Assembly: GCA_016930155.1 (NCBI GenBank)
Contig: JAFGHL010000074.1
Coordinates: forward strand, 1 to 62,293
Length of the DNA stretch: 62,293 nt
Reading direction: 5' to 3'
From: Dehalococcoidia bacterium
GTDB taxonomy: Bacteria > Chloroflexota > Dehalococcoidia > GIF9 > UBA5629
In this document: piece after piece, positions 34,757-58,544 of the stretch
Layout of the letters: every line of letters begins with the position of its first letter
Numbering within the stretch: the first letter of the stretch is position 1
Program-made: the position numbers and the translations under genes
The notes under the pieces: model-generated
Told to the model about the DNA's origin: nothing
The model's input: only the letters and a program-made list of their open reading frames with translations
The model's database searches: none

Positions 34757-35542
34757 TCAGTCCCACCATTCGGGGAACATGGCCAGTTTCTGGGCCGAAT
34801 CGTGGCCGAAGATGACCTTTGCCTCGTACAGGCCGGCTATGCGCCTGATTTTCTCGACGCTTTTTACGTAATCATCCAGGTTGATGGCGGCGCCGGGCAG
34901 CTTGGCCGGCGGGCCGAAGCTCTCGGCGGTGTAAACCGCATCGCTGGCTATGATCAGGTCGCCGTTCTTTTTCGTCTCGATCCGGGCGCCCATCTCACCC
35001 GGGGCATGACCGGGCAGGAAGAGCAGGTGCACGCCGGGCAGCAGGTCATAGTCACCGTCGATGACCATCCAGTTCAGATCCGAGAACTGAAAATCGGTGC
35101 CGATGTAGCCCGCATAGGCCACGTCGGAGCGGTTGGTGTAAATCGTCGACATGGCGACCTGAGCCTCAGCTTTCTGCACCACAATTTTGGCTTTGGCGCC
35201 CCTGAAGGAGGACAGTCCCCCCGCATGATCGTAGTGAAGATGCGACATGATGACGTAATCGATATCCTGCGGCGTAACCCCCATCTTTTTCAGTTGATCA
35301 AGCATGAAGCTCGGCCTTACATACGGCATGAATTCGTTCAGAAGTCCCCAGGTCTGCTTGAAGTCGGGGCTGCAGCCGGTGTCGAACAGTATTTTGCTTC
35401 CCGTGTCGGTTTCGAGATAAAAACCGGGTATGGGGAAAACGAACTGCTCCGAGGGTTTGTCCGCGTAAAACAGGTTCGTGAATCCCTGCTCCTCGCCGTA
35501 ATCCAGACACGTGACCCTGCAGTATGGTGATGCTTTGCCCAT
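34757..35542 (-). CDS. N-acyl homoserine lactonase family metallo-beta-lactamase fold hydrolase
   Basis: FDTG, SHLHYDHAGG, PGHAPG, SDA, FGHD. Confidence 0.87.
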   Translation of the reverse strand: MGKASPYCRVTCLDYGEEQGFTNLFYADKPSEQFVFPIPGFYLETDTGSKILFDTGCSPDFKQTWGLLNEFMPYVRPSFMLDQLKKMGVTPQDIDYVIMSHLHYDHAGGLSSFRGAKAKIVVQKAEAQVAMSTIYTNRSDVAYAGYIGTDFQFSDLNWMVIDGDYDLLPGVHLLFLPGHAPGEMGARIETKKNGDLIIASDAVYTAESFGPPAKLPGAAINLDDYVKSVEKIRRIAGLYEAKVIFGHDSAQKLAMFPEWWD

Positions 35543-35553
35543 CCTGTACCTCC

Positions 35554-35955
35554 TCAGTTCCTGAAACGTTCTTCAATATAATTGATGATGTCTCTGGTCG
35601 ATGTGCCGGGGCCGAAGACCGCCTGCACCCCGATTCTCTTGAGCTTCGGTATGTCCTCATCCGGTATGATGCCCCCGCAGATAAAGAGGCTATTTTTTTT
35701 ACCTTTTTCAGCCAGTCCTTTGATAATCTCCGGAAACAGCTCCATATGCGCTCCGGAGAGGGAGCTCAGCCCCACGACGTCGACGTCCTCCTGAATGGCG
35801 GTGGTGACGATCATCCCCGGTGTCTGGCGTATGCCGGTATAGATCACCTCCATGCCGGCGTCCCTCAGCGCCCTTGCCACCACTTTGGCGCCGCGGTCAT
35901 GGCCGTCCAGACCCAGCTTGGCCACCAGTACACGTATCTTCTTGTCCTTCTCCAT
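35554..35955 (-). CDS. Acyl-CoA mutase small subunit (cobalamin-binding domain)
   Basis: [10 protein letters not shown] (DxHxxG), [14 protein letters not shown]. Confidence 0.93.
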
Positions 35956-35963
35956 GATTCATC

Positions 35964-37322
35964 CTATTTCTTTATACAAAGTTTTACCAGGCCGGCGATA
36001 TTATCGAGCTTATCCAGGCTGGATATGGCGTTTTTAAGATCCGCGGCCTGTTTTTTCGACAGTGTGCGGGTGGCCTGCATCTCGAAATTGGCGATCACAC
36101 GCTCGTCGTTCATTACCTCCAGGTCTTCCATTTTCTCGTTAATAATTTTGCCGCCCTTGAGCGTTACGGTGATCTCGCATCCCTGTTTCTTGGGATAGGC
36201 GCCTGTGATGGCGTCGTCGACATCCACTGTGGCAAGGGCGGTCAGCTTATTGACGCGGGGATCCGAGTATTTCTCATAGTTAGATTGTACCAGCTCCTTG
36301 AAGATAAAGACTGCGGCTACCGAGTACTGCTGGCTCATCTTGGACTGAGCGATGTCTGTGAAGGGGCCCTGGTAATCGAGCCCGGGGAACATCTTGCCCA
36401 TGGGGAATGTTTTGATATTTATTTTCTCGATTGCCTGTGGATCGATATCATATTTGTTTACCATCCTGAGGGCCAGGGCGGCGGAGGGCTGGGTGTAGGC
36501 GCAGGCAGGGGCGGGTTTGCAGAACACCTTCATTATTTCAAACGATTTTCCCAGGCCTTCGGTGATTTTCTCACCCAGGGGCTGTTTACCGTAAGTGTTC
36601 CAGGCGCCTAAAAAGCCTTCCAGCACTTGCCGTGACGCTTTCGCCCCCTCTTTGCCCAGCAAAGCGGCCGAGATACCGTTGCGGCAGGCGAATCCGTTTT
36701 GATAGACGATCTCGTGAGTGCCCTCCATCGCCCATTGCATATTGCCGCAGGACAGCGTGCCCGCCAGTCCCAGGCCGTTGACCATCTGTTCCTCGTTCAG
36801 CTTATATAATTTAGCCGCTGTGATGCAGGCGCCGTAGGGACCGAACATACCGCTGGGGCGGAATTTCTTGGAGAAATCGGGCGAAAGCATACTCATGCCG
36901 ATGCGCCCGATGACGTCGTAGCCCAGCACGATGGCGGTAATAACGTCCTTTCCGTTGCTACCCAGCTCCTCGCCCACAGCGAACGCCGTCGGTATGATCA
37001 TCGAGCCGCAATGGCAGGACGAGTCCGCGTGCATGTCTTCCTGGCCCGTGCTCTGTCCGATCACCGAGTTCACCAGGGCCACCTCCCAGGGCGGCCCTTT
37101 GATGCCATCCACGAAAGTTGAAGCTTTGCCGCCCAGCTTCAGCTTCCTGAGGTAATTGGGGGCGGGTGCGATTAAATCCTGGTTGCGGCCGGCGAAAGTA
37201 CAGGCCAGCGCATGAAAAACAAGTATTTTCACCCTGTCAACCAGGTCTTTGGGAAGATCTTCGTACTTCAGCGAGGCAGCCAATTTCGCCAGGGACTCCG
37301 TTACCGTAACTGCATCACTCAT
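35964..37322 (-). CDS. MmgE/PrpD family protein
   Basis: A.VNS.....EDMH....H, AIVLGYDV..R, K..PAC.Y. Confidence 0.85.
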   Translation of the reverse strand: MSDAVTVTESLAKLAASLKYEDLPKDLVDRVKILVFHALACTFAGRNQDLIAPAPNYLRKLKLGGKASTFVDGIKGPPWEVALVNSVIGQSTGQEDMHADSSCHCGSMIIPTAFAVGEELGSNGKDVITAIVLGYDVIGRIGMSMLSPDFSKKFRPSGMFGPYGACITAAKLYKLNEEQMVNGLGLAGTLSCGNMQWAMEGTHEIVYQNGFACRNGISAALLGKEGAKASRQVLEGFLGAWNTYGKQPLGEKITEGLGKSFEIMKVFCKPAPACAYTQPSAALALRMVNKYDIDPQAIEKINIKTFPMGKMFPGLDYQGPFTDIAQSKMSQQYSVAAVFIFKELVQSNYEKYSDPRVNKLTALATVDVDDAITGAYPKKQGCEITVTLKGGKIINEKMEDLEVMNDERVIANFEMQATRTLSKKQAADLKNAISSLDKLDNIAGLVKLCIKK

Positions 37323-37370
37323 TACCCTGCTCCTTTAACAACGCAAGTTGCAAAATTCTTTATATTATTA

Positions 37371-37427
37371 TAATGTTATAATAATAATTTGTAAATAGCC
37401 CGCGCCCATATGATTGTTATAACAATT
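37371..37427. promoter_or_regulatory. Putative GntR operator sites in the divergent prpD-like/gntR intergenic region
   Basis: TAATGTTATA (37371-37380) and palindrome ATTGTTATAACAAT (37413-37426). Confidence 0.55.
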
Positions 37428-37489
37428 GTTCCGGCAATTCCTGTATAATGTTGTAGTAATGATATGATAATAGCAATTGAGGAAGCGGT

Positions 37490-38353
37490 ATGTTAACGAG
37501 AGAGAAAGGTGTACCACTGTATTATCAGCTTGATACCATACTGCGTAAAAAAATACTGTCGGGTGAGATAGCGGCCGGTGCTCCTTTCCCCACCGAGGAT
37601 CTTCTGGTTCAGCAATACAATATCAGCCGCATTACCGTGCGCCAGGCGCTGGCGTCGCTGGAAAAGGACCGGCTGATCATCAGGAAGCAGGGCAAGGGCA
37701 CCTTCGTGGCGGAAAAAATCGAGAGAGCCGAGTTGCCCAAGCTGTCGGGAACCGGGAACGACCTGGTCGACATCAGCTCCCATGACTCCAAGCGCATCAA
37801 GATCATAACCCGGGTCGTCGGGTTTTCCAGGCTGCTGGCCAACAAGACCATCACTGATTACCTGGGCATTCCCGAGGGTGAAGAGATCATCCGCATAGAG
37901 AGGGTCAGGCTGGCCAACGAGAAGCCGCTGTATCATCTGCTCAATTACCTTCCCCTGGATATAGGCGAAAAGCTGAATCACAAAGCGTTAAAGAACAAGA
38001 CGCTCACCCACCTGATGGAGACCGACCTGAAAATAGTTATCAAGAAGGCTGTTCAGACCATTGAAGCCGATATAGTCGACAGCCACATAGGCCCTATCCT
38101 GGATGCCCGGGAGGGGGATCCCTGCCTGATATTGAGAAGGGTGGTATATGAAAAGAGCGGCAGGGCCATCGAATATTTAGTTGCCACCTTCAGAGCCGAC
38201 CGGTACATGTACACCAATATGCTGCTGAGACATAAGAAGGGCAAGGGATACGAGTGGTTGAACACCGATTTCTCCCGGCACAAGCAGTACAGCCAATCGA
38301 GGCCCAGCGATCCCCTGATGAACGAGCACCTGCCATCCTTCATCCGCACCTGA
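37490..38353 (+). CDS. GntR family regulator, HutC/UTRA subfamily
   Basis: PLYYQL, PTE..L...YNISRITVRQAL, QGKGTFV; UTRA-type C-terminus (IERVRL, FRADRY). Confidence 0.92.
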   Translation: MLTREKGVPLYYQLDTILRKKILSGEIAAGAPFPTEDLLVQQYNISRITVRQALASLEKDRLIIRKQGKGTFVAEKIERAELPKLSGTGNDLVDISSHDSKRIKIITRVVGFSRLLANKTITDYLGIPEGEEIIRIERVRLANEKPLYHLLNYLPLDIGEKLNHKALKNKTLTHLMETDLKIVIKKAVQTIEADIVDSHIGPILDAREGDPCLILRRVVYEKSGRAIEYLVATFRADRYMYTNMLLRHKKGKGYEWLNTDFSRHKQYSQSRPSDPLMNEHLPSFIRT

Positions 38354-38428
38354 CGGACGTTTGAAGCGCCTCAACCTTCAATAGTGCCGCGCCCGCCCGG
38401 CCCTTCCATCTCCATACACACGAGATCA

Positions 38429-38485
38429 TTGACAAGTCCGCGCTGTTATTATATGATGATCTAAAGTAAATATGATATAACAATA
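38429..38485 (+). promoter_or_regulatory. Sigma70 promoter plus TATAACAATA site for SDR-TRAP operon
   Basis: TTGACA 38429-38434, 17 bp, TATGAT 38452-38457; motif at 38476-38485. Confidence 0.65.
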
Positions 38486-38596
38486 ATACAATAGAATATT
38501 ACTATCGTTTTGTTCGTGTGTTTGGGATTTCCTGATGCCTGATACCGATGAATTCTTATCGATTCAATTAATAGCATAAGGGAGGTAAAAAGGACT

Positions 38597-39400
38597 ATGG
38601 CGAGGTCAAACAAGGTGGCTGTTATCACCGGAGGAGGACGGGGCATAGGCAAGGGCATTGCCAGGATATTCACTCAAAACGGCATCGATGTGGTGATTGC
38701 CGGCAGGAACTTCGAGAAACTGGAAAAAACGGCGGCGGAGCTGAAATCACCCAAAGCGGAAATATTATGTGTTCAAACGGACGTATCGGTCCAAACGCAG
38801 GTGGAGCGCCTGTTTGATAAAACGATGGAGAAGTTCGGCAAGGTCGACATTCTGGTCAACAACGCGGGCATCGCCGAGCCGATGGCGCCCATCACGGATA
38901 TAGACATGAAGCTGGTGGACGACATCGTCGGCATCAATTTTAAAGGTGTTTACTACTGCGCCCGCAGGGCGGTCAAGGAGATGCTGGCCCGCAAAAGCGG
39001 CAACATTATCAATATCGGTTCAGTCGAGGGGCTGATCTCTCTGCCGGGTATAGCATACGGCCCCATGAAGGCCGCCGTGCACAGGTTCACCAAACTGCTG
39101 GCCAGCGAGCTGGCCGCCATTCCCATCAGGGTTAACTGCATCTGTCCGGGGCTGGTCCTTACGGAAATGATGGAAGAGCTTTCCGACCGCGACGTCGAGG
39201 TGTTTCTGGTGCATATCCCCATGCACAAGGCGCTGGTCCCCGATGATGTGGGTAAACTGGCCTATTTCCTGACATCCGATGATGCAAGATATATTACCGG
39301 CTCCATCATTGCGGCCGACTCGGGCATCACCGCTGCCACTACAGGATTTAATACCTCATTACAGGATGTCGAAAAATGGATGAAGGCTGCTGTCAGTTAA
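38597..39400 (+). CDS. SDR family oxidoreductase
   Basis: TGGGRGIG, NNAG, NIGS, YGPMK. Confidence 0.92.
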   Translation: MARSNKVAVITGGGRGIGKGIARIFTQNGIDVVIAGRNFEKLEKTAAELKSPKAEILCVQTDVSVQTQVERLFDKTMEKFGKVDILVNNAGIAEPMAPITDIDMKLVDDIVGINFKGVYYCARRAVKEMLARKSGNIINIGSVEGLISLPGIAYGPMKAAVHRFTKLLASELAAIPIRVNCICPGLVLTEMMEELSDRDVEVFLVHIPMHKALVPDDVGKLAYFLTSDDARYITGSIIAADSGITAATTGFNTSLQDVEKWMKAAVS

Positions 39401-39447: not shown

Positions 39448-40215
39448 ATGGCAAGGTCAAATAAGGTAGCTGTGATCACCGGTGGAGGAAGCGGTATCGG
39501 CAAGGGTATTGCTAAAGTATTTACGCAGAACGGCATCGATGTAGCAATAGCCGGCAGGAATTTGAAAAAGCTGGAAAAAGCGGCGGCGGAGCTCAAATCC
39601 TCCAAAGCAGAGATATTATGTGTTCAGACGGATATAGCGGTGCAGGCACAGGTGGAACGCCTGTTCGACAAGGCGCTGGAGAAGTTCGGCAAGGTGGACA
39701 TACTGGTCAACAATGCGGGCATCACCGAGCCGATGGGTTCGATAACCGATATCGATATGAAGCTGGCCGAGGATATAATAAACATCGATTTCATGGGCGC
39801 TTTTTACTGCGCCCGCAGGGCTGCTAAAGAGATGAAGGCGCAGAAAAGCGGCAATATCCTCAATATCGGCGCGACCGAAGGGCTGGTCTCCCTGCCCGGC
39901 ACACTGTATGGCGCCATGAAGGCCGCCATATCGCAATTCACCATAGTCCTGTCGCGCGAGCTGGCCGCCGTCCCCATCCGGGTCAATTGCATCCGGCCGG
40001 GAGTGGTCATTACGGAGAAGACGCAGGGGCTGTCCGCCGGCGACCTTGAGGCGTTTCTTAAAAACGTCCCCATGCATAAGGCGCTGTATCCCGAGGATAT
40101 CGGTAAACTCGCGTACTACCTGGTCTCGGATGACGCCAGATATATCACAGGCGCCATCGTTTCGGCCGATGCGGGCGTCTCCGCGGACGGCGGATGGTTT
40201 GCTTTCGGTCTGTAA
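39448..40215 (+). CDS. SDR family oxidoreductase, tandem paralog
   Basis: TGGGSGIG, NNAG, NIGA (catalytic Ser position is Ala), YGAMK. Confidence 0.9.
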   Translation: MARSNKVAVITGGGSGIGKGIAKVFTQNGIDVAIAGRNLKKLEKAAAELKSSKAEILCVQTDIAVQAQVERLFDKALEKFGKVDILVNNAGITEPMGSITDIDMKLAEDIINIDFMGAFYCARRAAKEMKAQKSGNILNIGATEGLVSLPGTLYGAMKAAISQFTIVLSRELAAVPIRVNCIRPGVVITEKTQGLSAGDLEAFLKNVPMHKALYPEDIGKLAYYLVSDDARYITGAIVSADAGVSADGGWFAFGL

Positions 40216-40244: not shown

Positions 40245-41096
40245 ATGGATCTGGGTCTCAAAGGCAAGGTGGCGATCGTGACCGGCGCCGGCCAGGGCGT
40301 CGGCGAAGGGATTGCTGCAATTCTGTCAAAGGAAGGGGCCAAAGTCGTGGTGAACGACTTTTTTCAAGAGCGCGCCGACAGGGTTGCCAAAGACATAGTT
40401 GCCGCAGGCGGAGAAGCCGTTGCGCTGCAGGCGGATGTTGCTGATTTCGACTCGGTCACGCAAATGGTCAAAAAGGCGCTGGATAAATTCGGACGCATAG
40501 ACATCCTGGTGAACAACGCCGGTGTCCCGGCGCCTTTGCCCGAGGGAGATACCCCCGCCTCGATGGATAATACCTTCGATAAGGTGGACCGTGCTCTCTG
40601 GAAGCGCTATATCGACGTCAATATATATGGTGTGATGAATTGCACACGGGCCGTGCTGGATGGAATGATCAATCAGAAGTACGGCAAGATCATCAATATC
40701 ATCTCCGACGCCGGCAGGATCGGCGAGCCCAGGCAGGCGGCCTATTCCGCTGGCAAGGCCGGCGTGATGGGTTTCAGCAAGGCGCTGTCCAAAGAGGTGG
40801 GCAAGCATTGTATCAACGTCAACTGCCTGGCCCTGGGCGCCGTGCCGCATCCAGGCCTGGATAACCGCAGAATTGGCATGATGGTGAAGATGGGCATGAC
40901 AGAGGAGCAGGCCAGGGACATGATCAAAGGTATCAGGGAGAAGGCTATAAAGCTGTACCCCATGGGCAAAGGGTTGGGGCGGTTCGGGACACCTGCAGAC
41001 GTAGGAAATGCAGTCGCTTTCTTTGCATCCGACGCCTCTGTTTTTATCAGTGGGCAGACGCTGAGCATCAGCGGAGGATATACCACGGTGGGTTAA
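40245..41096 (+). CDS. SDR family oxidoreductase (3-hydroxyacyl-CoA dehydrogenase/BadH-like)
   Basis: TGAGQGVG, NNAG, SDAGRIGE, YSAGK. Confidence 0.88.
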   Translation: MDLGLKGKVAIVTGAGQGVGEGIAAILSKEGAKVVVNDFFQERADRVAKDIVAAGGEAVALQADVADFDSVTQMVKKALDKFGRIDILVNNAGVPAPLPEGDTPASMDNTFDKVDRALWKRYIDVNIYGVMNCTRAVLDGMINQKYGKIINIISDAGRIGEPRQAAYSAGKAGVMGFSKALSKEVGKHCINVNCLALGAVPHPGLDNRRIGMMVKMGMTEEQARDMIKGIREKAIKLYPMGKGLGRFGTPADVGNAVAFFASDASVFISGQTLSISGGYTTVG

Positions 41097-42385: not shown

Positions 42386-42934
42386 ATGACGAAAATAGCA
42401 GCTACGATCGACACGATCATTGAGCGGCTGTCCGTTGCGGGTCTCTGGATAGGCTCAATAGGTGTGTTGATCATGTTTGTCATCGTTTTCATTGAAATCG
42501 TGGTGAGAAAGGCATTCGAAACCAGTATATACATAAGCCAGGATTATTCAGGATATATGATGGCTATTTGTCTGGCGCTTCCACTGGGTATGCTGGTCAG
42601 GAGGCGGGGGCATATCAAAGTCGATGTTATATTTGCACGCCTCCCTCCCAAAGTAAAGTACTGCTTTGATCTGGCTTTTTTAGTCATAATGCTTTGCTAT
42701 GGAATAGCATTGACGTACATATGTTACGGGCTGTCCAAGGATTCATATGATCTGAAGGCTGTCAGCATTGATTTAAGTCATACGCCACTCTGGATCCCGC
42801 AGTCTACGCTGGTCATCGGAGTAGGTTTCTTTGTTATTACATTGATATTCGAGATCTATAAAATGCTGTTCATGAGAAGCGGTGGCGCGGCAATCCCGGC
42901 TCCCATTAAATCACCCGGAGCGGAGAACAAATGA
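42386..42934 (+). CDS. dctQ: TRAP transporter small permease
   Basis: Four TM helices, GHIKVD, PLWIP. Confidence 0.88.
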   Translation: MTKIAATIDTIIERLSVAGLWIGSIGVLIMFVIVFIEIVVRKAFETSIYISQDYSGYMMAICLALPLGMLVRRRGHIKVDVIFARLPPKVKYCFDLAFLVIMLCYGIALTYICYGLSKDSYDLKAVSIDLSHTPLWIPQSTLVIGVGFFVITLIFEIYKMLFMRSGGAAIPAPIKSPGAENK

Positions 42935-44241: not shown

Positions 44242-44279
44242 ACCCGAAGTAAACAAGCAGTTCGCTTAATAAAGAGAAG

Positions 44280-44303: not shown

Positions 44304-44333
44304 GCCTTATTTGTCAGGCCGCATGTCCCTTTA

Positions 44334-48074: not shown

Positions 48075-48104
48075 TAAGCAGCGTCATTTCTGGAGGTAGC
48101 AACC

Positions 48105-49274: not shown

Positions 49275-49290
49275 AGGGAGGATCTGAGCG

Positions 49291-50496: not shown

Positions 50497-50518
50497 TAAT
50501 GATGGAGGACAGCATAAG

Positions 50519-51475: not shown

Positions 51476-51496
51476 AAATTCAAAGGAGAACGAGAG

Positions 51497-52459
51497 ATGA
51501 CCATATTAGTGACAGGTGGAAAGGGCTTTATAGGCGCCCGCGTTATCAAAAACCTGGTGGAGCGTGGTGAAGAGGTGGTCTGCATGGAGCCCAAGCTCAC
51601 GCCGGGAAGGCTGGGTGAGCTGGCCGGCAAGATCACCATGGTCGAAGGCGATATAGTAAACTTCGCTAATATCTCCGACGTCATGAGCAAGTACAAGGTC
51701 GACAGAGTGGCGCACATGGTGTTCTTCTCGGCGGAGGAGCGTGGCGTCAGCGAGCGCCCCGAGAAGGCCGGTGACCTGTATAAGCAGATGATGATCATGA
51801 ACACCGGCACTTTCCATATTTTTGAGGCCGCCCGCCTGGCCGGTGTAAAGAAATTTGTTTACCCCAGCTCCATACAGTATCACGGAATACCCTGGGACGG
51901 CCCGGAGCCAGTGAATGAGGACTCCCCGGCCAGGCCCAACAGGGGTTACGGAATCGGCAAGTTTTTGTGCGAGCACCTGGCACATGAATACAACAGGCTG
52001 CTCAAGACAGATATAGTCACTATAAGGATACCCGGCGTATACGGACCGGGCGTGCGAATCGGCGCCCGGGGAGTAAACCTGATAGGTACGGCTGGAGCGC
52101 TGGGCAACGAGATACCTTTCCCGTATCCGGCCAAGCAGTACATCGTGCTGGCTCACGTCGATGATATAGCTGAAATGGTGGCCAGGATACTGTTTGCGCC
52201 GAAACTGCCGCATGAGGTCTATCATGTCGGCGGTCACTATGTCTCGTACGGCGAAATGGCGGAGATAGGCCGAAAGATCATCCCCGACATGAAGGTCACC
52301 TTTGATGACAGCGGTCCCTTCGGTCACATGTATAAGATAGATTGCAGCAGGATGATCAAAGAGATAGGAGTGCAGCACCGCAGCCTGTATGACGGGTACT
52401 TCGAACTGGTTAACCTGACTCGCAAAGAGAACAACCTGCCGCCGATAGAAAAGAAATAA
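51497..52459 (+). CDS. NAD-dependent epimerase/dehydratase family protein
   Basis: TGGKGFIG, YPSS, YGIGK, VYGPG, HVDDIA. Confidence 0.88.
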   Translation: MTILVTGGKGFIGARVIKNLVERGEEVVCMEPKLTPGRLGELAGKITMVEGDIVNFANISDVMSKYKVDRVAHMVFFSAEERGVSERPEKAGDLYKQMMIMNTGTFHIFEAARLAGVKKFVYPSSIQYHGIPWDGPEPVNEDSPARPNRGYGIGKFLCEHLAHEYNRLLKTDIVTIRIPGVYGPGVRIGARGVNLIGTAGALGNEIPFPYPAKQYIVLAHVDDIAEMVARILFAPKLPHEVYHVGGHYVSYGEMAEIGRKIIPDMKVTFDDSGPFGHMYKIDCSRMIKEIGVQHRSLYDGYFELVNLTRKENNLPPIEKK

Positions 52460-52485
52460 CTTACACGTATGAGCGGGAGTATAAA

Positions 52486-52917
52486 ATGAGTGAAAATGTA
52501 GCTGGTGCAGAGAAAAAGACTATTCCTTTGCAGGAAGGCCTGTTCGAAATGGGCAGCGACGACAAATATCATCTGGTGGCCAGCCGATGTAAAAGCTGCA
52601 GACTAACATTTTTCCCCAAGAGGAAATACTGCGGGAAATGCGGCTCTGCCGACGTCGAGGTGTTTAATCTGAGCGACCGCGGCAAGGTCTTTACCTTCAG
52701 TCAGGTAGACAGGAAGAGCATATATACAATTATAGATCCGCCCTATATGGAGGCGGAAGTCGAGATGCCGGAAGGCGTCCATATATTCACAATACTGGAT
52801 AAATGCGATTTTAAGGCGGTGGACTTCGGGATGGAGGTGGAAGTCTATATGGACAAGGTCAAGCAGGATGAAGCGGGCAACGACGTCATAGCCTTCAAAT
52901 TCAAGCCCGCTGCTTAA
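52486..52917 (+). CDS. Zn-ribbon/OB-fold (DUF35) protein
   Basis: CKSC...FPKRKYCGKC, PY...VEMPEG. Confidence 0.87.
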   Translation: MSENVAGAEKKTIPLQEGLFEMGSDDKYHLVASRCKSCRLTFFPKRKYCGKCGSADVEVFNLSDRGKVFTFSQVDRKSIYTIIDPPYMEAEVEMPEGVHIFTILDKCDFKAVDFGMEVEVYMDKVKQDEAGNDVIAFKFKPAA

Positions 52918-52962
52918 CTATTGAGGCTTAAATCGGCTCAGTTTGACGGAGGAAACGGCATT

Positions 52963-54120
52963 ATGAATGAAGTAGTAGTAATGGGAGTGGGCACTCTTCG
53001 TTTCGGCAGGTGGCCGAATAAGTCTGTTATGGAGATGGCCGAGGTGCCCATTGAGGCTGCGCTTAAGGACTCGGGCATCCCGTTCAAGGACATTCAGGCT
53101 GCATACATAGGCAGTGAACTGGGGCATTTCCCGGATGCCAGGATGATCGTACAGAATTTCGGTTGGACCGGCATTCCCATCAGCCAGATGCAACAGGCCT
53201 GCGCCAGCGGATCGGCCGCATTCAGGGAGGCCTTTTACTCCGTAGCCTCGGGCAGGTATGACGTAGTCCTGGTGGCAGGCTACGAAAAAATGGGGAAGGG
53301 GCTGATCCCGGGCGGCGTACCCGAGCAGGACAAGGAGTACCATCTCCATTATATGGGGCTCGATGTAACGCCGGCCCGTATCGCCATGGCCATTAAAAGA
53401 AGAATGCTTACCTACGGCGATACTCTTGAGATGCTGGCGGCCGAGGCAGCCCAGTGCTTTGAGTACGGGCCGCTTAACCAGTATGCGCACAACCAGAAAA
53501 GATACACCATGGCCGATGTGCTGGAGTCGCCCATGATCTGCTCTCCGCTTACTCTCCTGATGAGTTGCCCTATCAGCGATGGGGCGGCGGCGGCCATCAT
53601 CTGCAGCAAGAAAAAAGCCAGGCAGTTCGGAGCGGGCAGGGCTATCACCGTTGCTGTGAGTGTTGCCGGTACGCCGGATTATAACGATCTGGTGGGCGGG
53701 CCCGGACCGCACATCGGCGGCGACTTCAAGGGAGGCAAACTGACCAGCAGGGTGAGCAAGGAAGCATACGAGAAGAGCGGTATAGGGCCACGAGATATCA
53801 AGGTCGTCCAGTGCCATGCGCCTTTCGCCGGCGGTGGCGCAATCTGCATTGAGGCGCTTGGCTACTGCGAAGAAGGTGAAGGAGGGAAATGGTTCCTGGA
53901 AGGTAAAACCAGGATTGACGGTCAGGTAGCCGTCAATACCGACGGCGGCCTGATAGCCAGGGGACATCCCCTGGGAGCCACCGGAGTCGCCGAGATTGGC
54001 GAGCTCGTCCGCCAGTTGAGAGGCGAAGGCGGCGCCCTGCAGATACCAAACAATCCCAAAGTAGCCATGGCACACAATACGGGACTGGGCTGCATAAACC
54101 TTCACATCCTCAAGAAGTAG
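52963..54120 (+). CDS. Thiolase family protein (SCP-x/BbsB type)
   Basis: QACASGS, SCPISDGAAA, QCHAPF, GHPLGATG; GGAGG RBS before ATG 52963. Confidence 0.87.
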   Translation: MNEVVVMGVGTLRFGRWPNKSVMEMAEVPIEAALKDSGIPFKDIQAAYIGSELGHFPDARMIVQNFGWTGIPISQMQQACASGSAAFREAFYSVASGRYDVVLVAGYEKMGKGLIPGGVPEQDKEYHLHYMGLDVTPARIAMAIKRRMLTYGDTLEMLAAEAAQCFEYGPLNQYAHNQKRYTMADVLESPMICSPLTLLMSCPISDGAAAAIICSKKKARQFGAGRAITVAVSVAGTPDYNDLVGGPGPHIGGDFKGGKLTSRVSKEAYEKSGIGPRDIKVVQCHAPFAGGGAICIEALGYCEEGEGGKWFLEGKTRIDGQVAVNTDGGLIARGHPLGATGVAEIGELVRQLRGEGGALQIPNNPKVAMAHNTGLGCINLHILKK

Positions 54121-54171
54121 TAGCTGTATTTCGGGGATTGTGCCGGCAGCAGTGTACCAGCATAGGGCTGG

Positions 54172-54187
54172 ATATCTTATAAGATAT
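54172..54187. promoter_or_regulatory. Perfect 16-bp palindrome in intra-operon spacer
   Basis: ATATCTTATAAGATAT, overlapping TATAACGTTT (variant of the regulon motif). Confidence 0.35.
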
Positions 54188-54212
54188 AACGTTTAAGTAA
54201 ATTAATAAAGGG

Positions 54213-55961
54213 ATGAAAAACGAGGAATATTTCAGCAAGCTGTTCGCCTCCGAGCCGTCAAGCAGGCCGGACAAGGTCACCAATCTGGGCGAGGCGATAG
54301 GGAAAAACCTGAATCCGGGCATGTCCGTTTTCCTGGGCTGGAACGCCAATGCGGCGGTCTGCGAGATAATGAGGCGGTATCAAGGCGGCAAACCGGGCTT
54401 CACTCTGGTCATGTCTCTTACCTGGGACCTTTCCCTGAACCTGGTGCACGGTGGTCTGATCAAGAGAATCATATCTGGGGGATGCTCATATCCCGCCCCC
54501 GGCCCGGCGCCCAGCCACGTAATACAGAGGGCCTATCGCGAAGGCAAGGTGGAGATCGAAAACTGGACTCTCTATTCCATGCAGCAGAGGCTGATGGCGG
54601 GTGCGCTGGGAGTTGGTTTCATGCCCACCAGGTCCATCGCCGGAAGCGATATGGCGATGGAAAACAGGGCATGCTTTAAGGAGATTGCAGATCCCTTTGA
54701 CAGCAGCAGGAAAATTGGAGCGGTAAAAGCCTTGAATACCGACATCGCCATCGTCCACGCACTGGCTGCTGACAGATACGGCAATACCATCATGTCTCCC
54801 GTTTCGCAGGACACTTTGTGGGGTCCCAGGTCGGCAAGGGGTGGAGTGATTGTGACGGCCGAAAAAATAGTCGGCCCGGAATTCATACGACGTCATGCCC
54901 ATCTGGTCAGCATTCCGGGATACCTGGTCAGGGCGGTTTCGCTGTGTCCGCTGGGAGCTCATCCGGAAGGTCATTTCTCCTGCATCGAGGGAGTTGACAG
55001 CTACGGCGAAGACTACGACTTCATGCTCGAGCAGAAGAAAGTCAGCAGAGAACCTGATCTGCTGAATGACTGGTTGAAACAGTGGATATACGATGTACGG
55101 GATCATGAGGAATACACTGGCCGAATCGGCTTTGAACGCATCTTCAGCCTTAAACATAAGATCAATACGACGCAATGGGAAAATGATTTAAATTCATGCG
55201 CTTGTGACAGGCAAGCGGGCCGTACGGAGAAGATGATTATCGCCGCGTCGCGGGTGATCGCTGAAAGGGTAAAAGAGGCCGGATACAAGGTACTGCTGGC
55301 AGGAATCGGGATACCGGGACTCGCCTCTTGGATAGCCTACTATCGGCTCAAGCAGGAGGGTGTTGAAATAAAGCTAATCCTGGGTTCGGGCGTGTTTGGA
55401 TATCAGCCCGGGCCGGGGGACCCGAATTCAGTGAGCGTCCGCCATGTGCCTTCCGCGGAGATGCTGATTGACACGGGCGAGATGTACGGGTTCATTATTT
55501 CAGGTGAGGGCGCCAGTTGTCTCAGCATCGTTGGAACTGCTCAAATCGATGAAAAAGGGAATATCAACACCACCCGGGTGGGCGCGGACACATATATCAG
55601 CGGTTCGGGTGGAAACAACGACAATACCAGCGGCGCCTCGGAGGTGATGGTAGTCATGGCACAATCAAAGAAACGCTGCGTCGAGCGGTTGGACTACCTG
55701 ACCTCAGCCGGCGACAAAGTCAGCACTCTAATTACAGATATGGGAGTTTTTCGCAAAGGCTCCGACGGCCGTTTTATTCTGACCGACTGCATACCTGCAG
55801 CGGATAGTAAAGATCCGGCAGGTATACTGGCAGAGATTCAGGATAAATGCGGCTGGAAAATCAAAGCAGATCCAGCGTTGACCGCCATAGGCTCTTTTGA
55901 TGAGCGTGACCTTGCTTTATTGAGGATGTTCGATCCGCACGGACACGTATCGGGAGGATAG
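54213..55961 (+). CDS. Fused alpha+beta class I CoA-transferase fold protein (GctAB/IpdAB-like)
   Basis: RLMAGALGVGFMPTRSIAGSD, HALAADRYGN, PLGAHP; AGIG, AQIDEKGNIN, GSGGNND, ITDMGV. Confidence 0.82.
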   Translation: MKNEEYFSKLFASEPSSRPDKVTNLGEAIGKNLNPGMSVFLGWNANAAVCEIMRRYQGGKPGFTLVMSLTWDLSLNLVHGGLIKRIISGGCSYPAPGPAPSHVIQRAYREGKVEIENWTLYSMQQRLMAGALGVGFMPTRSIAGSDMAMENRACFKEIADPFDSSRKIGAVKALNTDIAIVHALAADRYGNTIMSPVSQDTLWGPRSARGGVIVTAEKIVGPEFIRRHAHLVSIPGYLVRAVSLCPLGAHPEGHFSCIEGVDSYGEDYDFMLEQKKVSREPDLLNDWLKQWIYDVRDHEEYTGRIGFERIFSLKHKINTTQWENDLNSCACDRQAGRTEKMIIAASRVIAERVKEAGYKVLLAGIGIPGLASWIAYYRLKQEGVEIKLILGSGVFGYQPGPGDPNSVSVRHVPSAEMLIDTGEMYGFIISGEGASCLSIVGTAQIDEKGNINTTRVGADTYISGSGGNNDNTSGASEVMVVMAQSKKRCVERLDYLTSAGDKVSTLITDMGVFRKGSDGRFILTDCIPAADSKDPAGILAEIQDKCGWKIKADPALTAIGSFDERDLALLRMFDPHGHVSGG

Positions 55962-55997
55962 GCGCCTGCAGCAGAGGACACCGGAGGTTATGCGCAC

Positions 55998-56993
55998 TTG
56001 AGAAACGAGAGTATCCGTGGTATCCAATCCGGTGACGATCTTGCGCTGGCCAGGCTTATCAGCTTGGTCGAAAGAGGCGGCGCGCATGTTCCCGAGATCA
56101 TGAGAACGCTGGCCGCGCAGGCCGGCAGGGCATATCGAATAGGAGTCACCGGCCCTCCCGGGGCCGGGAAAAGCACGCTGATCAGCGGCCTTACAACGCT
56201 TTTGAGGGAGAAGGGTTTCAGTGTGGCGGTACTGGCCGTAGACCCGACCAGCCCTTTCAGGGGAGGAGCCATACTGGGTGACCGTGTGCGGATGCAGAAG
56301 CATTATACCGATGAGGGTGTATTCATTCGCAGCCTGGCTACCAGGGGCGTAAAGGGAGGATTAACCGGCACGATCGGTGAGATTATCGACCTGGTCGACG
56401 CTGCCGGCAAGGACTATATACTGCTTGAGACGGTCGGTGTGGGTCAGGGCGAGTTGGATATAGTGAGCCACGTGGATACGGTTGCTGTTGTTCTGGTGCC
56501 GGGCGCCGGGGACAGTATTCAAATCATGAAGGCCGGAATAATGGAGATCGCCGATATATTCGTAGTCAACAAATCCGACCTGGCCGGCGCCGATGAGCTG
56601 GTCAACAATCTAAATGCAACCATAGATTTAGGCAGGAAACAGGAGCGATGGCGGATTCCGGTTTTAAAGTGCCGCTCGGACCGGAATGATGGCATAAGGG
56701 AGCTGCTGGATCAAGTATTGAAGCACAGGTATTTGCTGGAGAGCCTGGGGTTGCTTGACGAGAGGCGCGGACGGCAGCGTCTGCAGCAGTTCCGGTCCAT
56801 GCTGGAGCAGAAAATACTGGAGGAAATCAGATCGAAGCTACTGGCCGATGATAGGATTAAGGACATTGGTGAAAAAATCGAGAAGGGTGAGATTAGCCCA
56901 TACGTAGCCCTCGGCCGTGTTCTGGAAGCAGGCCTGCCGTTATCTTCCCTTGAAAAAACATGTAATAGAACTGAAAAAAGGAGCAAGAAATGA
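55998..56993 (+). CDS. meaB: Acyl-CoA mutase-associated GTPase MeaB/ArgK
   Basis: GPPGAGKST, AVDPTSPF.GGAILGDRVRM, ETVGVGQ, NKSD. Confidence 0.94.
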   Translation: MRNESIRGIQSGDDLALARLISLVERGGAHVPEIMRTLAAQAGRAYRIGVTGPPGAGKSTLISGLTTLLREKGFSVAVLAVDPTSPFRGGAILGDRVRMQKHYTDEGVFIRSLATRGVKGGLTGTIGEIIDLVDAAGKDYILLETVGVGQGELDIVSHVDTVAVVLVPGAGDSIQIMKAGIMEIADIFVVNKSDLAGADELVNNLNATIDLGRKQERWRIPVLKCRSDRNDGIRELLDQVLKHRYLLESLGLLDERRGRQRLQQFRSMLEQKILEEIRSKLLADDRIKDIGEKIEKGEISPYVALGRVLEAGLPLSSLEKTCNRTEKRSKK

Positions 56994-57763
56994 GCGCTGA
57001 GCTAATAATCGAGCGTAAGGACTTTATCAGCACAGTCACCATCAACAGGCCCGACAAGAGAAACGCGCTCAATTACGAGGTTCTGAGCGGTATTACCAGC
57101 GGTCTGAGCGAAGTGGTAAAAGAGGGCAAGACCAGGGCTATCATCCTGACGGGTGCGGGTGAGATGGCCTTCAGTGCAGGTATGGACCTCATCTTCGTCA
57201 ACACCGAGAGAGAGTTGGCCGACAGGACGCTGGCGGATGCATTAAACAGCCTGGTCAACTGTCCTATCCCCATCATAGCCAGGATACATGCGGACGCACT
57301 GGGCGCGGGCTGCGATCTTACTACAACCTGCGATTTCAGAATAGCCTCCGACAATGCCAGAATGGGAATCCCGCCGGTGAAGTTCGGCTGGGTTTACTAT
57401 CCTCAGTCCATCCAGCGCCTGATAAATTTAATCGGTCTGGCATATACCAAGGAGCTGTTTTTAACCGCGCGGTTCATGCCGGCTGCAAAGGCCAGGGAGA
57501 TCGGCCTGCTCCATTCAGTGGTGTCCCTCGCCGAGCTGGATGCGACGGTGAACGGTCTGGCGCAGGATCTGGCTGAGATGGCGCCACTGGCCGTACAGGG
57601 TACAAAGTACGTAATCAATCAGATTCTCCATTACCAGAAGCTTGACAGCGCCGTAGAGCAGGAGATCGACCGGCTGATCTGGAGATGCTACCAGTCGGAA
57701 GATGCTGTGGAGGGCAACCGGGCGTTCAAAGAGAAGAGGAAGCCCGATTTCAAGGGTAGATAG
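56990..57763 (+). CDS. Crotonase superfamily protein with non-canonical catalytic residues
   Basis: NRPDKRNAL, FSAGMDL, GAGCDL, IPPVKFG, AFKEKRKP; ATGA overlap with meaB. Confidence 0.87.
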   Translation: MSAELIIERKDFISTVTINRPDKRNALNYEVLSGITSGLSEVVKEGKTRAIILTGAGEMAFSAGMDLIFVNTERELADRTLADALNSLVNCPIPIIARIHADALGAGCDLTTTCDFRIASDNARMGIPPVKFGWVYYPQSIQRLINLIGLAYTKELFLTARFMPAAKAREIGLLHSVVSLAELDATVNGLAQDLAEMAPLAVQGTKYVINQILHYQKLDSAVEQEIDRLIWRCYQSEDAVEGNRAFKEKRKPDFKGR

Positions 57764-57785
57764 CTGTAGAAGCCGGCTATCTGCC
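57755..57785. terminator. Hairpin spanning two convergent stop codons
   Basis: GGTAGATAGCTG...CGGCTATCTGCC with G-U pairs. Confidence 0.45.
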
Positions 57786-58544
57786 GTATCCGTGCCACCC
57801 ACCGTCGCTGGTCACGCCGGCATCAGCGGCTATGACAGCGCCTGTGATGTAGCGAGACTTGTCGGAGACCAGGAAATAAGCAAGCTCAGCTATATCCTCA
57901 ACCATCATAGGCACGTGCATGGGGATGTTTTTGAGGAACAGCTCGATATTTCGGTCGCCCTGGTCGGAAGCCATCTGTGTCTGAACATAGCCCGGCGCGA
58001 TGCAGTTCACCCTAATCATATAGCCGGCCAGCTCGCGGGCAAGAATGTGCGTGAACATGTTAACAGCCGCTTTCATCGGTCCATATACTATGCAGGGCAA
58101 CGATATAAGTCCGTGTACGGAAGAGATATTGATAATACAGCCGCTCTTGCGCGGCTTCATTTCCATGGCAGCCCTGCGGCTGCAGTAGTAAACCCCTTTG
58201 AAATCCGTGTTGATTATGTTGTCAAGGTAGGCCAGGTCCAGCTCGGTGATGGGGTTGGTCGGCTGCGCAACGCCCGCGTTATTGACCAGTATATCGATCT
58301 TCCTGAACCTCTCGATCACTTTATCGAAGGCCGATTCTACATCTTGCAGTAATCCGACGTCCGTTTTGATGGCAAGCCCGTTGCCGCCGAGCGCTTCTAT
58401 CTCACCCACAGTCTGTTCAAGCTTGTCATATCCACGCCCCAGCACCGCGACATCTATGCCGTTTTTAGCGAAATGCAGGGCGATGCCTTTCCCGATGCCC
58501 CTCCCTCCACCTGTAATGATCGCGACCCTGTTTGAATTTTCCAT
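57777..58544 (-). CDS. SDR family oxidoreductase (third paralog of 38597/39448)
   Basis: TGGGRGIGKGIA, NNAG, YGPMKAA, IPMH. Confidence 0.92.
   Translation of the reverse strand: MENSNRVAIITGGGRGIGKGIALHFAKNGIDVAVLGRGYDKLEQTVGEIEALGGNGLAIKTDVGLLQDVESAFDKVIERFRKIDILVNNAGVAQPTNPITELDLAYLDNIINTDFKGVYYCSRRAAMEMKPRKSGCIINISSVHGLISLPCIVYGPMKAAVNMFTHILARELAGYMIRVNCIAPGYVQTQMASDQGDRNIELFLKNIPMHVPMMVEDIAELAYFLVSDKSRYITGAVIAADAGVTSDGGWHGYGR

Follow-up and report, generated by a model that had tools for sequence, protein, structure and literature searches.

Branched C5-dicarboxylates such as itaconate, methylsuccinate and 2-hydroxyparaconate are immune, fungal and gut metabolites. In Pseudomonas and Cupriavidus the gene cluster reported for itaconate and methylsuccinate encodes a hydratase, a lyase and an acyl-CoA dehydrogenase together with a family III CoA-transferase, an (S)-(R)-methylsuccinate isomerase of the MmgE/PrpD family, a 2-hydroxyparaconate lactonase and a transporter; the names Ict, Ich, Ccl, Mcd and Msi, and PA0884-0886 for the transporter, are used for P. 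aeruginosa and Cupriavidus necator (PMC12290011, PMC9875883). The known MmgE/PrpD substrates are all C2- or C3-substituted succinates that share a C4 1,4-dicarboxylate core, and the residues named for the methylsuccinate isomerase are a His, a Tyr as the second base, two Lys and carboxylate ligands (PMC12290011). It is also stated there that methylsuccinate arises through the reduction of itaconate under anoxic conditions, and that itaconate-fermenting bacteria are not known (Gonner et al. 2025, PMC12290011). For the biosynthesis of actinonin and matlystatin, it has been proposed that the split mutases ActD and MatB interconvert hexylmalonyl-CoA and pentylsuccinyl-CoA (PMC5719088), and a general expansion in Chloroflexota of the enzyme families considered below has been described for SAR202 (PMC5395668). 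In this work we analyzed a contig of 62,293 nucleotides from a Dehalococcoidia bacterium (JAFGHL010000074.1, assembly GCA_016930155.1; the whole contig is referred to as the window), in which positions 34757-58544 hold a cluster of 23 genes that includes a split B12-dependent acyl-CoA mutase and a single GntR/HutC-type regulator.

A sequence-only reading of this stretch had proposed an undescribed B12-dependent pathway for a substituted dicarboxylate or a lactone, centred on the GntR gene. The open reading frames (ORFs) chosen from a six-frame list were all scanned with Pfam, and NCBIfam equivalog cut-offs were checked as well; every family named in that reading was confirmed at its place, and one gene that it had overlooked, encoding a protein of 226 amino acids (46193-46873), completes the set of 23. 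The genome (G000, in which the window is contig C117) comprises 2.6 Mb in 131 contigs, with a completeness of 98% and a contamination of 7.95%, and the nearest homologues of the mutase come from metagenome-assembled genomes (MAGs) named Dehalococcoidia or Chloroflexota. The cluster corresponds to no described pathway and is a variation on known chemistry. The interpretation that we favour, at a little under an even chance, is that it forms one substrate-inducible catabolic unit for an imported, lactone-forming, substituted-succinate acid, which would be degraded through CoA esters, a mutase rearrangement and decarboxylation.

The large subunit of the mutase is encoded on the minus strand at 44334-45986, although homologues indicate that the start probably lies two codons further in. 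It is well above the family cut-offs (PF01642, 702.7 vs 22.1 bits; TIGR00641, 729.1 vs 303.8), as is the B12-binding small subunit (35554-35955, minus strand; PF02310, 94 bits; TIGR00640, 176 vs 57.45), which carries the DxHxxG motif as DGHDRG at residues 17-22. The best solved match of the large subunit is HcmA (4r3u_A, E 9e-156). The specificity residues of HcmA are Ile, Asp and Gln, and in the alignment to 4r3u_A the cluster mutase shows Y, A and R instead of I, D and Q. The signature of isobutyryl-CoA mutase and IcmF is likewise absent, given that the two IcmF-like proteins of the genome have RQF and GQN where the cluster enzyme has RQY and ARN. In a HMMER alignment to 1req_A these two motifs correspond to Tyr89 and Arg207 of the P. 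shermanii methylmalonyl-CoA mutase, the residues that hold the substrate carboxylate, and all the substrate ligands that can be aligned are retained (RQY, QND, ARx, GYH and the Glu of DEA/DEG). By strict methylmalonyl-CoA mutase standards, the Tyr and the Arg are thus in place, but the His-Thr-Asn (HTN) and SFFF segments are not: RLSWHFQIH stands for RxSFFF/W and QSMAVAS for QSLHTNS, whereas the canonical segments are found in the human, P. shermanii and E. coli (Sbm) enzymes and in a paralogue on contig C63 of the same genome. The score against the NF006944 equivalog is under its cut-off (615.4 vs 876), but this model describes the fused form of 721 residues and the canonical split enzyme of C63 falls under it too (668.4).

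The distribution of the changed segment was followed in an alignment of 207 sequences, in which the query was joined by 116 of the 120 top-ranking database homologues, ORFs from 80 genome-contig loci, the paralogues of the genome itself and four divergent metagenome proteins. The His of the HTN segment is kept in 119 of them and absent in 88; among the 82 ORFs from other phyla, which come from the 80 loci, it is kept in 81. In a FastTree phylogeny rooted on the two IcmF-like proteins, the query belongs to a clade of 82 tips, all of which have lost the His (support 0.987), and the sister group consists of 35 canonical Chloroflexota sequences. The genome has four mutase genes, namely the cluster gene, the canonical split enzyme of C63 (59% identical, with HTN and SFFF kept) and the two IcmF-like fusions. 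In G078, a genome of the same genus, the canonical large subunit adjoins its own small subunit.

Close to the end of the long plus-strand operon that starts at the 226-aa gene lies the gene of the MeaB-type G-protein chaperone (55998-56993; PF03308, 295.1 bits; P-loop GPPGAGKS), and its stop is overlapped by 4 bp by the start of a crotonase-fold gene (56990-57763, plus strand; PF00378, 152.6 bits). This arrangement recalls argK and scpB of E. coli, and the cluster could be read in the manner of scpA-argK-scpB: the mutase would be an ordinary methylmalonyl-CoA mutase paralogue, the substrate would yield succinyl-CoA by a Bbs-like route, and the mutase would only funnel this end product through methylmalonyl-CoA to propionyl-CoA. 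The equivalents of Tyr89, Arg207 and the Tyr-His pair, all of which are kept, agree with this alternative, as do the 29% identity of the crotonase to ScpB, the family-level fit of the thiolase, DUF35 and family III proteins to a release of succinyl-CoA, and the fact that the cluster copy is the only stand-alone MeaB found in G000 (and, for its counterpart, in G078). Nonetheless, the genome already has a canonical paralogue with both segments intact, and the cluster enzyme belongs to a well-supported clade in which both have been replaced, although they are near-invariant elsewhere, in 81 of the 82 ORFs from other phyla and in the Sbm, human and P. shermanii enzymes. Moreover, both kinds of large subunit stand side by side in one operon in other genomes, as described below, which argues for different jobs. 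For these reasons we consider an ordinary methylmalonyl-CoA mutase unlikely.

Outside the genus, relatives of the mutase were sought in a class sample of 401 genomes; 13 genomes had matches at E<=1e-222, and nine of them were fetched, leaving out G388, whose mutase (61% identity) proved to be canonical, and three congeners of G388. Seven of the nine Dehalococcoidia genomes carry a gene of the HTN-less type. In five of the seven (loci L193, L194, L196, L197 and L199) it lies beside a canonical large-subunit gene, and in L200 a second, truncated mutase gene is found at the contig edge; these tandem operons have a single small-subunit gene. The tandem loci are L193 8157-13699, L194 7658-12463, L196, L197, L199 and L200, from genomes G632, G588, G558, G644, G453 and G604. 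An acyl-CoA dehydrogenase is encoded in L193 and L196 (E 1.7e-76 to a Pfam-verified one), and in L194, where this was checked, one product resembles methylmalonyl-CoA epimerase (E 8e-21 against solved epimerases). In the ethylmalonyl-CoA pathway, ethylmalonyl-CoA mutase works within such a set of two mutases, an epimerase and an acyl-CoA dehydrogenase. No model of the ethylmalonyl-CoA mutase family was returned by NCBIfam, and no annotated member turned up in the plasmid collection; a fused mutase of 661 residues from Tritonibacter mobilis, which from its size and taxon we presume to be an ethylmalonyl-CoA mutase and treat as a lead only, is also without HTN (QLP). In the seventh genome (L195, G506), the HTN-less gene is accompanied by genes for a thiolase, a DUF35 protein, a crotonase, a family III transferase and acyl-CoA dehydrogenases. 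A scan of genome contigs with the mutase gave matches of 51-58% identity only, all of them canonical except one, which lies in a Fusicatenibacter MAG (L074, 6947-11494) as part of an operon of three genes for an AcetylCoA_hydro-type CoA-transferase, a mutase with QSMACCA in place of HTN, and an MmgE/PrpD protein; no small-subunit gene was seen on this 13-kb contig.

The tandem loci raise the alternative that the HTN-less protein is not an enzyme in its own right but a partner of the canonical large subunit, like the inactive beta chain of the P. shermanii enzyme. The neighbourhood of a canonical gene and the single small-subunit gene in five of the seven further loci would fit such a pairing, and the lost His-Thr-Asn includes human Thr387, if the numbering offset used is correct, with p.Thr387Pro listed among the patient variants of MMUT; on the structural role of these residues the literature yielded patient variant tables only. 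In G000 and G078, by contrast, the two genes are on different contigs and the canonical one of G078 has a small subunit of its own; L074 and L195 show no canonical neighbour; and the substrate ligands that can be aligned are all kept, whereas true beta chains have lost them. A partner subunit is therefore very unlikely.

Taken further, these contexts allow a bolder proposal, which we advance only tentatively and regard as possible: the HTN-less clade would be an unrecognized specificity class of split adenosylcobalamin (AdoCbl) mutases for substituted succinyl-CoA (methylsuccinyl-/ethylmalonyl-CoA or larger 2-substituted homologues), serving a redox-neutral B12 route in anaerobic Chloroflexota and, judging from the Fusicatenibacter operon, in gut Lachnospiraceae, in which methylsuccinate, itaconate-derived lactones and related branched dicarboxylates would undergo CoA transfer, rearrangement by the mutase and decarboxylation, with the Cys/His-rich 226-aa protein as a new metal-binding component of such CoA-dependent routes.

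By strand and spacing the 23 genes form six units, and not four as had been counted before; the number four applies to the promoter regions that share the motif described below. The lactonase, small-subunit and MmgE/PrpD genes form a minus-strand trio (34757-37322, spacers of 11 and 8 bp), and eleven genes follow one another on the plus strand from 46193 to 57763 with gaps of -4 to 92 bp. The parts of the mutase are split over three units: the small subunit goes with MmgE/PrpD and the lactonase, the large subunit stands alone, and MeaB lies at the end of the long operon. Family III transferases, SDRs (short-chain dehydrogenases/reductases), crotonases and thiolase-like proteins are abundant in this genome (21, about 25, 23 and 15 ORFs, respectively, in phmmer searches with the cluster proteins as queries, E<1e-10). 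Because the genome is crowded with these families, their adjacency alone is weak evidence, and it is the conservation of the whole block that counts.

This conservation was observed in several places, so that the expected recurrence of the block in a synteny comparison was borne out. Contig C5 of G078 has 19 of the 23 genes in unchanged order; DctPQM and the fourth SDR were not found in this block. The gene order is also the same, as far as each of them extends, in nine metagenome loci of at least 8 kb whose 226-aa proteins have identities of 88% or more, and a freshwater DNA run from a separate study covers the whole 20 kb. The relatives that carry the block are all close (mutase 86-99% identical) and thus are not independent witnesses; in phylum and class samples of 401 genomes each, an orthologue above 62% identity was found only in G078. 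The tripartite ATP-independent periplasmic (TRAP) transporter genes (plus strand; dctP 41247-42332, dctQ 42386-42934, dctM 42931-44241; Pfam) occupy this position only in the window, L107 and L115, and are replaced by a major facilitator superfamily (MFS) gene in G078, L108-L111 and L121, with a second MFS gene behind the 226-aa gene. The uptake function is kept across the blocks and the TRAP system is not; the import by TRAP that had been postulated earlier is not a conserved feature, most orthologous blocks having MFS genes instead. The best solved relatives of DctP are distant (E 3e-19), so its ligand cannot be guessed.

Parts of the block also recur without the mutase, as paralogous clusters on contig C129 of G000 and in two more places in G078 (C10/C11); the 226-aa gene, CT3a, CT3b, CT3c, the SDR pair, MmgE/PrpD and Amidohydro_2 are common to C129 and C10/C11. 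The C129 cluster includes a 226-aa gene, CT3a, an MFS gene, CT3b, CT3c (the three family III transferases), two SDRs, a phosphotriesterase (PTE)-family protein, thiolases, DUF35, MmgE/PrpD and Amidohydro_2; no mutase was seen in it, on a contig that stops 230 bp past its MmgE/PrpD gene. The same stretch (L085 6329-19801; L086 1224-5478) also encodes a CMD-family protein, a 3HCDH protein and an HpaB-family protein. Two distant metagenome loci, L140 and L146, have an operon with a CoA ligase, CoA_trans alpha and beta chains, a 226-aa gene, an SDR and Amidohydro_2, followed by an extended SDR, DUF35, a thiolase, DUF169, an acyl-CoA dehydrogenase and a family III transferase; TRAP genes come next in L146.

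The only GntR/HutC-type gene of the cluster (37490-38353, plus strand) encodes a GntR helix-turn-helix (PF00392, 65.1 bits) and a UTRA domain (PF07702, 112.9 bits), and it is the sole ORF of the genome matched by its own phmmer query (E<1e-10). Four AT-rich spacers have the sequence ATAACAWTA in common: the divergent region between the MmgE/PrpD and GntR genes (37323-37489, copy at 37371), the region between GntR and the unit of SDR and transporter genes (38354-38596, copy at 38477), the divergent region between the mutase and the 226-aa gene (45987-46192, copy at 46065), and the region upstream of the fourth SDR (up to 58648, copy at 58579). These are the only four copies in the window. Of 11 occurrences of the 7-mer core in the window, six lie in these spacers, against a genome rate of 0.11 per kb. 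In the first spacer there is also a perfect palindrome, TTGTTATAACAA (37414-37425). The positions of the motif relative to the genes are unchanged in G078 and in L107-L121, where it lies about 130 bp before the 226-aa gene; the paralogous clusters, in which no GntR match is seen, have it at scattered places or not at all. The motif fits a candidate common operator for a single HutC-type regulator, and the cluster is probably under the control of a GntR/HutC repressor, in agreement with the central role that had been given to this gene. Two metatranscriptome runs of the probable source study gave only matches of 35-47 nt with 90-95% likeness, located in conserved SDR and mutase motifs, and were uninformative on expression.

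The motif bears on a further alternative, in which there is no single pathway and the cluster is a chance mosaic in which two or three independently working catabolic modules have become neighbours. That the modules occur apart (C129 and the C10/C11 clusters of G078 without mutase; L140 and L146 with a CoA ligase and an acyl-CoA dehydrogenase), that the transporter is exchangeable, and that the genome has 21 family III and 25 SDR ORFs would all be expected of a mosaic. However, the four promoter regions with the shared motif fall to either side of the borders that such modules would have, and the mutase parts, being spread over three units, would be hard to keep without a common function, yet they are kept in G078 and, over the extent of each locus, in the close metagenome loci. 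A chance mosaic is in our opinion quite unlikely.

Other enzymes of the cluster point to the kind of substrate. The metallo-beta-lactamase (MBL)-fold protein (34757-35542, minus strand, last gene of the trio; Lactamase_B, 70.3 bits) has the GcL and AiiA lactonases as its best solved relatives (E 7e-40 to 5e-31) and matches the NCBIfam equivalogs for acyl-homoserine lactone (AHL) lactonases under their cut-offs. In the C129 cluster its place is taken by the PTE-family protein, whose family shares its fold with the phosphotriesterase-like lactonases. That sister clusters carry lactonase-type proteins of two unrelated folds points to a lactone substrate. The divergent MmgE/PrpD-family protein (35964-37322, minus strand; PF03972 and PF19305) scores 25 bits against the PrpD equivalog, whose cut-off is 458, and its best solved relative is the IDS epimerase (E 1e-21). 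This alignment scores only 80 bits and may be wrong in single columns; in it, His99 and Lys266 are retained, and H85 is replaced by Q, D88 by G, Y145 by F, H150 by R and K198 by I. The protein probably acts at C2 of a substituted succinate.

The three family III CoA-transferases CT3a (46896-48074), CT3b (48105-49274) and CT3c (49291-50496), all on the plus strand (PF02515, 323-351 bits), are under the cut-offs of all the NCBIfam equivalogs. The Asp aligned with Asp169 of E. coli Frc is kept in CT3a and CT3b, including 11 of 11 CT3b-type sequences; CT3c-type proteins have T, A, G or E at this place and a conserved Asp three residues earlier. The designation of one of these proteins as AMACR-like is not upheld, as no racemase model is among the NCBIfam matches and CT3a and CT3b have the transferase Asp. 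A fourth family III gene lies just beyond the cluster (60361-61554, minus strand), flanked by hisA/F-like and dnaN genes; its product has Gly at the Asp169 position, and the gene is cluster-adjacent in G078 too.

The fused class I CoA-transferase-fold protein of 582 residues (54213-55961, plus strand; PF01144) has the fold that had been assigned to it, but the usual transferase activity is ruled out, since the catalytic Glu (VESG in GctB, SENG in CtfB and AtoA) is replaced by Gly (LGSG), as seen in HMMER alignments to 1poi_B and 8k9h_A and in a MAFFT alignment with E. coli AtoA. The orthologue of G078 and the beta chain of L140 have also lost this Glu, and the paralogues of G000 on contigs C19 and C101 keep it (AENG). 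Its solved relatives are GctA (the best one), AibA/B (5mzw) and IpdA (6co6), at E values of 1e-8 to 1e-11. AibAB and IpdAB are without the catalytic Glu and are not transferases, and the missing transferase Glu makes the 582-aa protein a candidate decarboxylase.

A second candidate for this role is the crotonase-fold protein. It aligns with E. coli ScpB over its full length; His66 and Tyr140 are functional residues of ScpB. Crotonase-fold hydratases have two Glu residues, and at these two positions the cluster protein has an Asp and a Pro-Pro. The score against NF008506, the methylmalonyl-CoA decarboxylase model, is 145.4 with a cut-off of 257. Because Tyr140 is kept and the gene overlaps meaB, it is a candidate (alkyl)malonyl-CoA decarboxylase.

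The tandem classical SDRs (38597-39400 and 39448-40215, plus strand; Pfam) are 73% identical in BLASTP and both have YxxxK; a BbsCD-like pair with one dead SDR was considered and rejected on these grounds. Their paralogues are likewise paired in the C129 and G078 clusters. A third classical SDR follows at 40245-41096 (plus strand; adh_short, 188.5 bits), and a fourth is encoded on the opposite strand at 57777-58544 (Pfam). The extended SDR with an epimerase/dehydratase fold (51497-52459, plus strand; PF01370, 104.5 bits) has NCBIfam matches far under the cut-offs. The Amidohydro_2 protein (50519-51475, plus strand; PF04909, 114.7 bits) has neither an NCBIfam match nor, by sequence, any solved relative, and the protein atlas returned unnamed Amidohydro_2 clusters only; this family includes decarboxylases, hydratases and lactonases. 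The DUF35 protein (zf-ChsH2 and OB; 52486-52917) and the SCP-x-type thiolase (52921-54120) are encoded 3 bp apart on the plus strand (Pfam).

These last genes call to mind described routes, namely the Bbs-type beta-oxidation of arylsuccinates and the alkylsuccinate route of anaerobic alkane degraders, and the cluster could be an instance of one of them. The same families are indeed present, since a two-gene family III transferase, an SDR pair, a crotonase, a thiolase with DUF35 and a mutase with MeaB are all found. The resemblance to Bbs that had been noted earlier stands at this family level and no further: the cut-offs of the BbsA and BbsB models are missed by far (DUF35, 58.9 vs 250; thiolase, 182.9 vs 750), the two SDRs, unlike BbsCD, arose by recent duplication and each retains the catalytic motif, and the lactonase, the MmgE/PrpD and Amidohydro_2 proteins and the Glu-less CoA_trans enzyme have no place in such a route. 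Among the 23 products, as the sequence-only reading had stated, Pfam gave no match to acyl-CoA dehydrogenase or glycyl-radical families; a MaoC-type hydratase, a citramalyl-CoA lyase and a ScpC-type (AcetylCoA_hydro) transferase are also absent from this set. That the cluster is one of these described pathways is thus extremely improbable.

The first gene of the long unit encodes the 226-aa protein (46193-46873, plus strand), which has no match in Pfam or NCBIfam. In 30 homologues of 38-85% identity, 22 positions are invariant, including three Cys and three His (H49, H109, E117, C129-G-S-G, C167, H169 and C199). The AF2 model has a pLDDT of 94.3. Its likeness to known folds is weak, with MopR/PoxR phenol-sensor domains as the best Foldseek match (E 0.02) and VIA-align Z values of 6.6 for Bet3, 5.5 for BcsD and 4.8 for DmpR/PoxR, all under the telling level of the tool, so the model resembles Bet3/V4R-type folds only weakly. 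A weak B12-binding_2 match in eight of the 30 members (best E 1.3e-5) and a protein atlas match to ATC_hydrolase/DUF6125 at 0.84 are taken as leads only. The protein is present in six of 401 Chloroflexota genomes, and Rhodococcus plasmids, as well as MAGs named Binataceae or Pseudomonadota, also carry homologues. Within 6 kb of 30 divergent homologues, the neighbours are family III transferases (12 loci), crotonases (12), SDRs (11), Amidohydro_2 proteins (6), thiolases (5) and mutases (3); a role specific to B12 was set aside, given that a mutase is near in only three of the 30 loci and that the paralogous clusters have none. A predicted complex with CT3a, run without controls, scored 0.00 and carries no weight either way.

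Some of the more distant relatives of this family deserve mention. Proteins similar to its C-terminal 130-180 residues (28-34% identity) are encoded in other Chloroflexota, in G040:C1 (211672-214227) and G261:C27 (3317-17908), within frames of 380-508 residues and several per locus, and may be fused or longer forms. On plasmid pRHL3 of Rhodococcus jostii RHA1 (L187, 17917-18684), a homologue of 33% identity annotated as hypothetical lies in an operon with genes for an acyl-CoA dehydrogenase, the E1 alpha/beta, E2 and E3 components of a 2-oxoacid/acetoin-type dehydrogenase, an alcohol dehydrogenase, an SDR and an AMP-binding ligase. Beside or near other homologues, four loci (L133 7865-10669, L143 5741-10666, L145 6856-10690 and L182 250-2259) encode very divergent proteins of the MM_CoA_mutase family (PF01642, 494 bits for L133), each with its own small subunit; at the motif positions compared, these mutase-like proteins have neither RQY nor HTN nor an equivalent of Arg207.

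From the predicted activities we infer the following route for the single catabolic unit proposed above, including the substrate class, each reaction and the order of the steps. The substrate would be taken up by the TRAP transporter, or by an MFS protein in sister strains, and a lactone ring would be opened by the AiiA-type lactonase. The free acid would then be processed by the MmgE/PrpD protein, through isomerization, dehydration or decarboxylation at C2, together with SDRs, and activated by the family III CoA-transferases, presumably with succinyl-CoA as the donor. Hydroxy- or oxo-substituted forms would be oxidized and their C-C bonds cleaved by the SDRs, the thiolase-DUF35 pair and the Glu-less CoA_trans enzyme, which may work as a decarboxylase or a hydrolase in the manner of AibAB or IpdAB. 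The remaining substituted succinyl-CoA would be rearranged by the dedicated AdoCbl mutase, assisted by MeaB and a small subunit of its own, to give a substituted malonyl-CoA, in a reaction of the type methylsuccinyl-CoA <-> ethylmalonyl-CoA or with a larger 2-alkyl homologue, and the ScpB-like crotonase would decarboxylate the product to a plain acyl-CoA. The conservation of the block, the positions of the motif, the mutase signature, the contexts of its clade, the lactone clue, the literature on MmgE/PrpD substrates and the two candidate decarboxylases speak for this scheme. The logic of activation, epimerization, rearrangement and decarboxylation put forward in the sequence-only reading is retained in it in part: the mutase with Tyr and Arg in a changed pocket, the substrates of MmgE/PrpD enzymes and the Fusicatenibacter operon are consistent with that logic, but the epimerase function is not.

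Several observations weigh against this scheme. The MmgE/PrpD protein appears to be devoid of the second base (Tyr145>Phe) and of several carboxylate ligands, so that an epimerase function is not supported, and the crotonase has Met at the position of His66 of ScpB. As the sole stand-alone copy, MeaB need not be dedicated to the cluster. For a relation of the mutase to ethylmalonyl-CoA mutase, the only lead by sequence is the Tritonibacter protein, itself only presumed to be one. The motif sits in AT-rich spacers and its conservation is known from close relatives only, and the 12-mer palindrome taken alone (up to two mismatches) gives four matches where 1.45 are expected, a count reached in five of 100 shuffles; on its own it is barely above chance and not significant. 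The richness of the genome in family III (21) and SDR (25) ORFs counts in the same direction. The block is also modular, in that modules with the 226-aa gene, CoA-transferases and SDRs, or with Amidohydro_2 and the thiolase, occur without the mutase, and therefore the mutase may serve only a side branch or an end product. Finally, no pathway-specific NCBIfam equivalog cut-off was reached by any cluster protein; the only cut-offs passed are those of the N- and C-terminal domain models of the mutase and of two subfamily models, one for TRAP proteins and a generic one for SDRs. Together with the full-text literature search, in which neither this combination nor a catabolic methylsuccinyl-CoA mutase route was found to be described (most subscription journals being outside the search), this last result agrees with the earlier claim that the pathway is not a described one.

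Elsewhere in the window, a G+C-rich inverted repeat, GGGCGGGGTTTTATAAAACCCCGCC, lies between the convergent dctM and mutase genes (44242-44333) and resembles a two-way terminator. A second catabolic stretch (15923-31769) encodes a CoA-ligase-like protein (Succ_CoA_lig), an SDR, two saccharopine-dehydrogenase-like proteins, a TPP/Fer4/pyridine-nucleotide-disulphide oxidoreductase fusion of 1178 residues, an AMP-binding ligase, an amino-acid permease, a further DUF35 and thiolase pair, and an alpha/beta-hydrolase. Positions 8001-14000 have a G+C content of 0.41-0.43, against 0.50-0.60 elsewhere, and are possibly foreign DNA.

The most interesting pieces of this locus are the HTN-less clade, with its links to MmgE/PrpD proteins and CoA-transferases, and the 226-aa family, which is conserved, folds well and occurs in CoA-dependent catabolic clusters of several phyla. 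The clade is a natural variant in which two conserved active-site segments have been replaced with the carboxylate ligands intact, and as such it is useful for understanding the substrate range of these mutases and for engineering. A redox-neutral mutase route, if it proves true, would answer how branched C5 acids are used without oxygen and would offer concrete candidate genes for expression, namely those of the two mutase subunits, MeaB, the crotonase, the MmgE/PrpD protein and a CoA-transferase. If the mutase is a plain methylmalonyl-CoA mutase, the cluster is just another unassigned catabolic island among many.

Compared with the systems already known, the cluster shares family-level parts with the Bbs and alkylsuccinate routes, in which CoA transfer to a substituted succinate is followed by thiolysis or by mutase and decarboxylation; it differs from them in the unmet equivalog cut-offs, the absence of an acyl-CoA dehydrogenase and a glycyl-radical enzyme, and the additional lactonase, MmgE/PrpD and Amidohydro_2 proteins. 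With scpA-argK-scpB-scpC of E. coli it has in common a mutase, a MeaB-type GTPase and a crotonase-fold candidate decarboxylase (29% identity, Tyr140 kept); here, however, the mutase is split, its HTN and SFFF segments are changed, His66 of the crotonase is Met and a ScpC-type transferase is missing, although the Fusicatenibacter operon has one. The 582-aa protein resembles AibA/AibB, a 3-methylglutaconyl-CoA decarboxylase, and IpdAB, a steroid ring-opening hydrolase, in its class I fold, its matches to the solved chains and the missing transferase Glu, but the similarity is low (E 1e-8 to 1e-11) and its halves are fused. Ethylmalonyl-CoA mutase is comparable in gene context, as genes of the clade are accompanied elsewhere by those for a canonical mutase, an epimerase and an acyl-CoA dehydrogenase. 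ActD and MatB are similar in being AdoCbl mutases with a split large and small B12 subunit for alkyl-bearing malonyl- and succinyl-CoA; the role proposed here is catabolic, in contrast to the assimilatory role of ethylmalonyl-CoA mutase and the biosynthetic role of ActD and MatB.

The nearest characterized system is the aerobic itaconate/methylsuccinate cluster, which the sequence-only reading had not named. Both clusters combine, at the family level, a family III CoA-transferase with an MmgE/PrpD protein, both have a lactonase suited to a succinate lactone and a dedicated carboxylate transporter, and the substrate proposed here belongs, like those of that system, to the substituted succinates. 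The isomerase residues are not all found in the MmgE/PrpD protein studied here (Tyr145>Phe in the 80-bit alignment), and the lactonase has an MBL fold here and a glyoxalase-like fold there. Instead of an acyl-CoA dehydrogenase, an itaconyl-CoA hydratase and a citramalyl-CoA lyase, the Dehalococcoidia cluster has a B12 mutase, MeaB and a ScpB-like crotonase, a set that would be redox-neutral, and to these it adds five SDR-type proteins, the thiolase with DUF35, the Amidohydro_2 protein and the 226-aa protein.

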